This document shows, piece by piece, positions 5,586 to 8,239 of a stretch of 18,593 bases of DNA. This stretch comes from Candidatus Heimdallarchaeota archaeon. GTDB lineage: Archaea > Asgardarchaeota > Heimdallarchaeia > Heimdallarchaeales > Heimdallarchaeaceae. Below the pieces are notes generated by a model that worked only from the letters and a program-made list of their open reading frames with translations, searched no databases and was not told the DNA's origin. A program made the position numbers and the translations under genes. How positions within the stretch are numbered: position 1 is the first letter of the stretch; each line of letters begins with the position of its first letter. Where the stretch lies: assembly GCA_016839945.1 (NCBI GenBank), contig JAEOTE010000091.1, positions 1 to 18,593 on the forward strand, written 5' to 3'.

Positions 5586-6377
5586 ATGAGTGATGTTGCT
5601 AGAGATGAAATAGATGAATTAAGGGATAGTATAGCATCTCCTCTAGTAGACATTGAAACAGAGAAAAAAGAGAAACTTCTTTTATCTTTAGAAAGGCAAG
5701 AAGTCCGTGTGCAAGAATGTATAGATGAAATATTGGTGATTTTGAGTGATCACATACCTCAAGAAATCCTCATACAAGCTGTGACACAATTTGAAAGCAT
5801 ACAGTATAGGATGATTTCAAACAGAATAAAAGAGAACAAACACTTTACGAAAAATCAAATTGCTACGGTCTTTTTGGCTATTCTTGATAATCTGCTAGCT
5901 CTCATTTATGAAAAGATAACTCCTGAATATTTCTCTATACTTAGACATAATATTCAGGGTATGAGTAATGGAAAATCTTTCAGTTATAACACTATGAAAA
6001 AAACACAAATTGAACTTTTCCAAAATGGTTATATCTCTCGAATTAAAAAACTAGGTTATACTTTGCAACTAAAGGACAGATTTTGTCAGATTCTTAGCAA
6101 TATGATGGCTATTTATCCACAATATGTTGACGAACTATACGACCTCGAAATAAGCGGATACAATTTGATTCACTCTAAATCAATACCAAAGATAGATGTA
6201 ACAAAGTCAGCTGCTGTAGTAGTTGGATCTTTAATTAAAACTTACTTTGCAAAGAAAGATGATCAGGAAAAATTGTGGAAATATGTAGAAGAAATCACGG
6301 ATGAAGATTACAATCAATTTCGAAGGAAGGTTTACAGATTTAAATCTAATCTGAAAAAAGAAGGATATGAAATCTAG
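5586..6377 (+). CDS. Hypothetical all-alpha protein, possible cyclin/TFIIB-like double helical repeat
   Basis: 263-aa ORF filling the gap between genes. The fold call rests only on the spacing of helical motifs (see findings). Confidence 0.7.
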   Translation: MSDVARDEIDELRDSIASPLVDIETEKKEKLLLSLERQEVRVQECIDEILVILSDHIPQEILIQAVTQFESIQYRMISNRIKENKHFTKNQIATVFLAILDNLLALIYEKITPEYFSILRHNIQGMSNGKSFSYNTMKKTQIELFQNGYISRIKKLGYTLQLKDRFCQILSNMMAIYPQYVDELYDLEISGYNLIHSKSIPKIDVTKSAAVVVGSLIKTYFAKKDDQEKLWKYVEEITDEDYNQFRRKVYRFKSNLKKEGYEI

Positions 6378-6409
6378 ATTTCAAAAATCTTCATAATGCT
6401 TTCATCATC

Positions 6410-6417
6410 TTTATAAA
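6410..6417 (+). promoter_or_regulatory. TATA box candidate upstream of the structured RNA
   Basis: TTTATAAA at 6410-6417, with a pyrimidine/purine step (T6440/A6441) about 31 nt from its first T. The background is AT-rich, so this is tentative. Confidence 0.35.
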
Positions 6418-6449
6418 CTGCTTTTTTTTCAGTTTAACATATTTTTTGA

Positions 6450-6722
6450 AACGCACGTTATGAAACTTGGTTAAACTTGCTAAAGGCTTTCTAACCGTCG
6501 TTTAAGTGGTTCCCCTCACGTGCGTTGAGGGGAAGTAATCATGAGGATCATGATTTAGTAGGAAAGGAGGGAGTGTGCATACTCCTCAACATCGTTCCTA
6601 CAATTGCACATAGTGCTACTTGATTCAAATGATTCTAACTGAGGGATAGGTGTTCGAGCACCTGTGAACCAAGCTATAGGTGAGTATTCACCTAGCACTA
6701 CCCACTTATCCGCACTTTCATA
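6450..6722. ncRNA. Putative novel structured non-coding RNA (multi-branched, pseudoknotted), strand unresolved
   Basis: Nested complementary segments: 6503-09/6702-08, 6510-18/6526-34, 6537-44/6548-55, 6558-64/6595-6601, 6570-74/6581-85, 6611-18/6693-6700, 6619-27/6665-73 (one mismatch), 6648-52/6659-63 and 6679-83/6688-92. Loop 6519-25 is complementary to 6451-57. Hand-counted GC is 93/210 (44%) over 6501-6710, well above the flanks. Confidence 0.7.
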
Positions 6723-6844
6723 TATAAACCCGTAAAAAACACTGCAGACGAATGAAACCTCACTCTCACAGTTAAAGAGCAATAAATATATACTATAGCG
6801 CTTCTGGCAAGATTGAGTAATATTTAAACACTCAGTAGTCTAAG

Positions 6845-8239
6845 GTGAATCTCTTGGATAATGACACTGATAGCCCCATGATACCCTTGGAAACTGAGCC
6901 AACTACTGTTTCACCTACTGAAAAAGATCCAACATATCTAGATGTTTTCAAGAATAAAGATTTCATGAAACTACTTTCTGGTCAGTTTTTCAGTAATTTT
7001 GGTGATGCTATCTTTCGTATTGCTATTCAATTGTATGTTTATGAGGCGACACTATCCATCACTGCAATGACTCTTATCTTAGCGGCTCAAACAGTTCCAT
7101 GGATAATAATCGGACCTATAGCTGGGGTTTTTGCAGATAGAATCAGCCGTAAAGCAATTATGGTTGGTGCTGATATCGTAAGAGGAACAGTAATTTTAAT
7201 TCTACCTTTTCTTAAAAGCATCTATGGTATCGCAATAATTGCATTTATTCTTGGTGCAGCTTCTGCCACTTTTGTAGCTCCTCGATCGGCAGCTATACCT
7301 GAAATAACTGGTTTACGATTATATGTGAAAGCTATATCACTTAGTCAACTAGTTTTTCAAACTCTTGCAGTTGTTGGACCTCTTTTTGCTGCTCCAATTT
7401 ATATTTTACTAGGTGAATCAACTTTTTGGATAACTAGTGGATGTTTCTTAGTTTCAGGAATAATCATATTCCTAACAACGATACCTTCTGCATCAAGAGA
7501 TAAAAAAGAAGTCATTTCGTTTAAGGTTGTTTTCAAGGATTTAAAGGAAGGATTTGGATATCTTGTTAAGCATCCAACAATAAGAATGCTAATTTTCCTT
7601 TTTACCTTCATAATAATTGGAACAGCATTCGCAGGTCCTTTGCTTTTACCGTATCTTTTTGAAGTAAAACACAATGCAATTTCTATTCAGTATTTTAATA
7701 CGCCTTTATCTATAACACGAATTTATGATTCAGCTTTCATTTCTGGACTAAAAGATTTGTCTGATCGGGAATTTGGTTTTTTGGGAGCAATTGTCGCATT
7801 AGGCTCTATAATGGGTAATCTAATTTTTGGAAGATTTGAGAAAAAAATAGGGAGGCCACTAGCGATAACACTAGGATCTTTAGCCATCTCACTGTATTAT
7901 TTTGTATTTCTTTTCAAACCAAGTTTCTATGTTCTGCTTGCAGTTGGCTTAATTCAAGGTTTCCTGAATGGGATGTTTAGTTTAGCAATTAACGCTCTTT
8001 TTGCAGAAAATGTGCCAAATGAAGTAAGAGGGAGAGCTTATAGCGCAACGAATGCATATATACAAGTTTTCAGTGTTCTATGTTTATCTCTTTCTGGCTT
8101 GACTGCAGATTCAATTGGTGTTGTTGTAACAATGGCTGGAGCAGGCATTTTCTTGCTTTTTACCACAGTAGTAATTATAATATTTACAAGGTTTTACAAG
8201 TTTGCTTCTGAGCCTCCTAGTCCGATTCTGAACTCTTAA
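6845..8239 (+). CDS. MFS transporter (DHA3/MefA-like H+ antiporter family)
   Basis: About 12 hydrophobic segments, GQFFSNFGD, motif A GVFADRISRK, DLKEGFGYL and VPNEVRGRAYS. The start may be GTG 6845 or ATG 6878. Confidence 0.92.
   Translation: MNLLDNDTDSPMIPLETEPTTVSPTEKDPTYLDVFKNKDFMKLLSGQFFSNFGDAIFRIAIQLYVYEATLSITAMTLILAAQTVPWIIIGPIAGVFADRISRKAIMVGADIVRGTVILILPFLKSIYGIAIIAFILGAASATFVAPRSAAIPEITGLRLYVKAISLSQLVFQTLAVVGPLFAAPIYILLGESTFWITSGCFLVSGIIIFLTTIPSASRDKKEVISFKVVFKDLKEGFGYLVKHPTIRMLIFLFTFIIIGTAFAGPLLLPYLFEVKHNAISIQYFNTPLSITRIYDSAFISGLKDLSDREFGFLGAIVALGSIMGNLIFGRFEKKIGRPLAITLGSLAISLYYFVFLFKPSFYVLLAVGLIQGFLNGMFSLAINALFAENVPNEVRGRAYSATNAYIQVFSVLCLSLSGLTADSIGVVVTMAGAGIFLLFTTVVIIIFTRFYKFASEPPSPILNS

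Follow-up and report, generated by a model that had tools for sequence, protein, structure and literature searches.

The window, the whole 18,593-nt stretch analysed here, is contig C64 of a 3.0-Mb assembly (G000, 88% complete) of a Candidatus Heimdallarchaeota archaeon. The minus strand of positions 6451-6841 very probably represents a 391-base, protein-less derivative of an IS607-family transposon, the RNA of which carries in its 3' part the guide-RNA scaffold of a TnpB nuclease. The original prediction had placed a densely structured RNA candidate of ~270 nt at 6450-6722. The true unit is larger, about 6451-6841, and is a repeat. Window positions 6449-6850 recur on contig C130 of the same genome at 94% identity, and its first 100 nt (6449-6547) are found again, with 87-89% identity, on contigs C104, C154 and C39, in all three cases linked to tnpB. 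Matches are present in 22 of the 24 genomes of the genus and in both genomes (2/2) of a second genus. Relatives hold dozens of copies at unrelated sites, and the copies often lie at contig ends, as expected for repeats. The sole open reading frame inside the element (6555-6782, minus strand, 75 aa) begins upstream of the TATA box; in other copies the same frame is interrupted by 0-4 stops and by 1-nt indels, so it does not represent a conserved protein gene. The idea that this frame is a relic of the TnpB protein was rejected, as it has no significant similarity to TnpB. The features of the element are as follows.

6842-6846, minus strand: transposon-adjacent motif, ACCTT here, with ACCGT as the family consensus.
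6790-6841, minus strand: left end (LE), including the 12-nt LE core at 6805-6816; the homology of the C130 copy ends near here.
6717-6739, minus strand: T-run and BRE/TATA-like promoter (TATA at 6721-6728), a homologue of the promoter found immediately ahead of tnpB in full-length elements.
6613-6698, minus strand: 5' RNA module A, with 93-99% of cells paired and double compensatory changes in three of four helices.
6694-6698/6613-6617, minus strand: outer stem of module A, enclosing the hairpin 6689-6693/6678-6682 and the stem 6666-6673/6619-6626.
6659-6663/6648-6652 (hairpin) and 6635-6647 (invariant single-stranded motif), minus strand: inner parts of module A, held within the stem 6666-6673/6619-6626.
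6538-6601, minus strand: 5' RNA module B, a stem (6595-6601/6558-6564) with an inner hairpin, followed by the hairpin 6548-6554/6538-6544.
6511-6533, minus strand: nexus-type hairpin of 8-9 bp, whose 7-nt loop (6519-6525) forms base pairs with the 3' end of the scaffold.
6451-6503, minus strand: terminal scaffold, with stems 6500-6503/6463-6466 and 6490-6496/6469-6475, a small inner hairpin and the 3' strand of the pseudoknot.
6451-6457, minus strand: 3' strand of the pseudoknot, identical to the right end (RE), pairing with the nexus loop.
6431-6450, minus strand: putative guide, which is host DNA also found at empty sites and is positioned by analogy with TnpB omegaRNAs.

The secondary structure of the region exceeds chance expectations. 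All helices proposed originally are present in 6450-6722, and the RNAfold z-scores are -3.25 for the plus and -4.26 for the minus strand, with none of 200 dinucleotide shuffles as stable. The elevated GC content was likewise confirmed (43.6% at 6450-6722 vs 28% in the left flank and 33% in the whole window). We aligned 23 short copies using MAFFT (mean column identity of 82%) and ran RNAalifold on this alignment, which recovered compensatory pairs in several helices. In a 71-pair structure, 94.4% of cells are paired across the 23 copies, compared to 34-39% with the partners slid. The same structure has 54 double-change cells against 22 ± 4 after shuffling, a value reached in 0 of 500 shuffles, and since covariation among repeat copies is partly inherited, the shuffle control overstates its weight. 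Most of the proposed arms are kept in the 23 copies, and compensatory changes occur in the three arms nested within the TAGTGCTA arm and in the TGGTTA/TAACCG arm. The two hairpin structures of module B are paired in 90% and 98% of cells, with few double changes. The closing stem at 6503-6509/6702-6708 fared worse: it is poorly conserved and paired in just 61-68% of cells. The invariant motif of module A (6635-6647) shares a hexamer with the 5' arm of the nexus hairpin (6526-6533) and could pair with the nexus 3' arm in an alternative fold.

Comparison with known RNA families agrees with the original expectation that the region belongs to none of them. Rfam gave no gathering-level matches and nothing with E < 1 across 6300-6900; a permissive search returned weak snoRNA/sRNA-like noise with E = 1.5-10, all of it outside the element, and a tRNA/tmRNA scan of the stretch found none. 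Elsewhere in the genome, other contigs carry its RNase P RNA and an incomplete SRP RNA.

The 3' 85 nt have the makeup of an omegaRNA scaffold. The nexus-type hairpin is 99% paired both in the short and in the tnpB-linked copies. The pseudoknot between its loop and the last 7 nt is kept in 84 right-end modules, with double changes at four of the seven positions, and is 92-99% paired in tnpB-linked copies. A nexus hairpin pseudoknotted to the scaffold 3' end beside the guide has been reported as universal among TnpB omegaRNAs (10.1101/2023.11.20.567912). The terminal scaffold is 87-96% identical to the sequence that spans and follows the tnpB stop codon at C154, C39, C104 and in relatives; in nine full-length copies the stop codon lies inside the shared module, 40-65 nt before RE. 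These sequence comparisons support the identification of the 3' 85 nt as the probable omegaRNA scaffold of an IS607-family TnpB element. By analogy with other TnpB omegaRNAs, the nucleotides that follow the scaffold, 6431-6450, would serve as the guide.

The ends of the element were delimited from the copies and from an empty site. At the right end, a fixed 7-mer with GT as its last two letters closes the conserved sequence at 6451, and the dinucleotide beyond it varies among the 84 copies. The LE core is common to TnpB-only and autonomous elements, including C154 of the same genome. ACCGT stands immediately before LE in 19 of 23 left junctions, with random sequence farther upstream. In the empty site of genome G003, CACCGT is directly followed by the right flank, so that the insertion falls right after CACCGT. 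As the empty site already has the motif, ACCGT is the target, or transposon-adjacent, motif. The dinucleotide GT ends RE in nearly all copies and precedes LE in most of them. Published IS607 properties include a core dinucleotide, lack of target site duplication and an omegaRNA with nexus and pseudoknot (10.1101/2023.11.20.567912). At the family level, the GT seen at most junctions, the absence of duplication at the window copy and the presence of the dinucleotide within the motif would fit this behaviour. The window copy has ACCTT as its motif and TT at its left junction, and may no longer be excisable or targetable; judging from published mismatch experiments (10.1101/2023.11.20.567912), this departure from the consensus may hinder excision.

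The off-consensus motif and dinucleotide of the window copy would also fit an RNA that is made without being a working guide, acting instead as a decoy or regulator of TnpB or transposase expression, or persisting as a decaying relic with an inherited structure. Described omegaRNAs lack a counterpart of the 5' module, and the loop motif at 6635-6647, given its resemblance to the nexus 5' arm, could compete for the partner of that arm, both of which fit such a role. Against it, the compensatory changes reflect selection on the fold while the family spread, in 84 copies the scaffold and the element end at exactly the same point, and the layout is shared by short lineages that are independent of each other and come from two genera. 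We regard this explanation as improbable.

The strand of the RNA was read from the pairs that tolerate G.U. Across the 84 copies the counts of G.U versus A.C are 13:4 for the pseudoknot and 66:11 for the stem 6490-6496/6469-6475. At C154, C39 and C104, the shared 100 nt adjoin an open reading frame of 642-655 aa on the strand opposite to the window orientation. The G.U counts and the orientation of tnpB together place the RNA on the minus strand. This call rests on the 84-copy set; helices common to both predicted folds are indecisive (10:6). The slight leaning towards the plus strand in the original prediction is thereby reversed, with 66 G.U cells for the minus and 11 for the plus strand in the TGGTTA/TAACCG helix.

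The position of the promoter is consistent with this orientation. The T-run and the TATA box are kept in all short copies of both genera, and the same promoter motif is found 30-45 nt before the tnpB ATG in loci L072 and L118. The TATA box lies ~25 nt ahead of the first conserved helix. Following archaeal promoter geometry, transcription is likely to start near 6697-6701, at that helix, and to yield an RNA of ~250 nt from the minus strand. The proposed closing stem sits between the TATA box and this start, and would thus be outside the predicted RNA. The outer TATGAAA/TTTCATA helix coincides in part with the region of the TATA box.

Watson-Crick covariation by itself cannot separate DNA from RNA, and serine transposases require sub-terminal motifs at both ends (10.1101/2023.11.20.567912). 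The structure could accordingly exist at the DNA level only, in the form of recombinase sites or cruciforms for transposition, with no functional RNA made. The strong strand bias of G.U-tolerant positions (66:11 and 13:4) speaks against this, as do the conserved TATA promoter ahead of the first conserved helix, the conservation of pairing over ~250 internal nt far from the ends, and the position of the same module across and beyond the tnpB 3' end, as in omegaRNAs. We therefore give a purely DNA-level function only a very small chance.

The site of the insertion was compared with its orthologs. In genomes G016 and G003 the same intergenic site is empty: the flanks are 86-88% identical and are joined without the ~391 nt. 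Comparison of filled and empty sites reveals no target duplication at the window copy. The empty orthologous sites, together with the recurrence of the element, identify it as a mobile insertion and not a conserved leader. A chromosomal ncRNA of a new class serving the host, or an element controlling the downstream MFS transporter as its 5' leader or as a riboregulator, has the strong conserved structure, the lack of an Rfam family and the location directly upstream of the MFS gene in its favour, but is contradicted by the site being empty in the two closest genomes, by the multiple copies, scattered over unrelated sites and frequently found at the ends of contigs, by an RNA strand opposite to the MFS gene, and by ends and a 3' module that belong to TnpB/IS607 elements, and we give it next to no credence. 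What stands of the proposed ncRNA is a conserved structured RNA backed by covariation and probably transcribed; the attribution to an undescribed class of cellular RNA does not, given a mobile repeat present in 22 of 24 genomes of the genus with an omegaRNA-type scaffold in its 3' part. The 263-aa open reading frame upstream of the element (window 5586-6377) matched no Pfam family at E <= 0.001.

Full-size relatives of 2.1-2.7 kb share both ends with the window element and encode a TnpB-like nuclease of 640-650 aa (642-655 aa in the individual loci), which is unusually large. The protein has a Cas12f1-like TNB domain in Pfam, matches the NCBIfam guided_TnpB profile at E = 1e-7 over profile positions 171-388 (the RuvC/zinc-finger half), and matches Cas12f and TnpB structures in the PDB. 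The RuvC-III motif NADxN reads NTHxN, replacing the third RuvC aspartate with histidine, in every copy examined (L072:190-2130, which is G000 C154, as well as L073 and L116-L118); the zinc-finger cysteines are kept in the copies examined. According to a published survey (PMC10691335), TnpB branches with an Asp-to-His substitution are conserved and presumably active; DNA cleavage by the histidine variant found here is presumed. Relatives identified by tblastn in public genomes are all Candidatus Heimdallarchaeota MAGs. A second, distant TnpB lineage of ~650 aa, 35-42% identical, is present across the genus, including G000 (C47:3465-5273 and C1:5-1513).

Pairing of the LE and RE motifs in four relatives outlines elements of 2.7 kb. 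In L117 and L118 an intact protein of 197-248 aa, which combines a MerR-type HTH with the serine motif YARVS, is encoded upstream of tnpB. In the L116 fragment, the frameshifted transposase matches the NCBIfam model transpos_IS607 at E = 2.4e-30; the frameshift in this 2.7-kb element (L116:2166-2764, genome G001) splits the serine transposase between its HTH and catalytic parts. The genome that contains the window retains a remnant of 63 aa (C39:20053-20241), which shares 76% identity with the C-terminal end of the IS607 serine transposase and immediately precedes the tnpB gene of C39; an intact serine transposase was not found in its 88%-complete assembly. Other mobilisers were considered. 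An IS200/IS605 (Y1) parent was dropped, as a search for PF01797 came up empty in all 25 genomes of the genus while detecting it in control genomes. No Cas1-type transposase was found in the same genome as the window, and its two resolvase genes were set aside as generic, unlinked to the elements and not of the IS607 type.

These components suggest how a gene-less element could be propagated. It keeps two recombination ends, the tnpB promoter and, by prediction, an RNA of ~250 nt. Because the scaffold ends exactly at the right end, transcription is expected to run into host DNA (from 6450 downwards) and thereby to create the guide. The RNA would be loaded in trans by the TnpB of 640-650 aa encoded elsewhere in the genome (C154, C39), and a serine transposase would move the element to sites after ACCGT. 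TnpB and the RNA would then cut the emptied site, recognised by the motif and the match to the guide, favouring retention of the element. TnpB binding, guide use and homing are thus predicted activities of the element.

The 5' half of the RNA requires a separate explanation. In tnpB-linked copies the 3' module alone keeps its pairs (92-100%), and helices of the 5' half mapped to the tnpB 3' end are paired in merely 22-56% of cells; the tnpB 3' end was therefore rejected as the origin of module A. The structure of module B is not kept there in full-length copies either, and an nhmmer search with module B against full-length elements returned nothing significant. The profile of module A, on the other hand, finds a 16-nt core and the hairpin directly before it at one fixed site in the middle of tnpB in five full-length elements. 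The reverse search, with the mid-gene profile against short copies, aligned up to 105 positions at marginal E-values of 0.003-0.02 and is consistent with this result. In the short elements of the second genus the same motif follows a hairpin of different sequence.

The middle of tnpB is conserved beyond its amino acids. We aligned the codons of 26 tnpB genes with protein identities of 59-100%. Codon identity at sites with the same amino acid is ~0.5 gene-wide, rising to 0.7-0.9 over codons ~255-350 and to 0.9 at the 3' omegaRNA overlap. The mid-gene segment contains two nearly invariant hairpins and one covarying pair. The recurrence in the middle of the gene and the frozen synonymous sites indicate that module A is a conserved nucleic-acid element of the family, located mid-gene in full-size copies. 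In the mini-elements it is joined straight to the scaffold behind the tnpB promoter. Our best guess is that the 5' 150 nt are a part of the ribonucleoprotein or a regulator of it. That the functional RNA is bipartite, made up of the 3' scaffold and a required structured module from codons ~255-350 of tnpB, is a tentative idea and in our estimation rather doubtful. If true, with the module residing in the TnpB ribonucleoprotein or gating its assembly, for example by competition for the nexus stem, it would constitute an undescribed guide-RNA architecture.

Standalone mobilised omegaRNAs acting in trans and PATE-like elements bearing omegaRNAs have already been described (PMC10691335, PMC10055086), and the window element belongs to this kind. 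It resembles them in having no protein gene, in being mobile and multi-copy, in sharing its ends with effector-encoding elements of the same genome, in a scaffold that ends at the right end and, by analogy, in the expected use of TnpB in trans. Unlike them, it has an IS607 (serine recombinase) and not an IS200/IS605 (Y1) parent, an Asgard (Heimdallarchaeota) host, its own TATA promoter taken from tnpB and an additional covarying 5' module of 150 nt. No omegaRNA described so far includes this 5' module. One published study of archaeal circular omegaRNAs says nothing about gene-less elements.

IS607-family elements with a serine TnpA, TnpB and omegaRNA, as in the CboIStron study (10.1101/2023.11.20.567912), offer a further parallel. 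Autonomous copies of the family have an HTH serine transposase upstream of tnpB, the window copy shows no target duplication, a dinucleotide within the target motif would be common to both junctions in most copies (the window copy having TT at the left), and the omegaRNA has a nexus hairpin with a pseudoknot to the scaffold 3' end. The core is GT and the motif ACCGT here, as opposed to GG and TGGG in CboIStron (10.1101/2023.11.20.567912). The family also differs in lacking a group I intron and in its TnpB of ~650 aa with a RuvC-III histidine, and the window copy is without both genes. As in omegaRNAs of the ISDra2 type, the scaffold of full-size copies shares sequence with the 3' end of tnpB, a pseudoknot lies beside the guide, and flanking DNA would provide the guide. 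Unlike in ISDra2-type omegaRNAs, there is no detectable sequence or Rfam similarity, the RNA is longer, and one portion corresponds to a conserved element located within tnpB, ~1 kb upstream.

The analysis removes a false lead, as the stretch is not a new Asgard RNA class and belongs to the biology of RNA-guided transposons. One lineage combines three tiers, in which the element is an autonomous IS607 transposon, carries TnpB only, or carries the guide RNA only. With a defined motif (ACCGT) and a large TnpB with a RuvC-III histidine, the family is a compact natural system for study, suited to asking how guide-only elements persist, whether histidine-variant TnpBs cut DNA and what role is played by the conserved RNA module in the middle of the gene. 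For genome annotation, it is relevant that such repeats fragment Heimdallarchaeota assemblies and can displace promoters.

The start codon of the MFS transporter gene marks the exact point of insertion (window 6842-6870; L060 ~2346; L059 ~2357). The insertion point in G016 coincides with the ATG of the MFS gene, and the reading frame of the window copy must begin at the GTG at 6845. The native upstream region of the gene has been pushed away by 391 nt, and an AT-rich, TATA-like stretch on the LE side of the element (6783-6800) faces the MFS gene.
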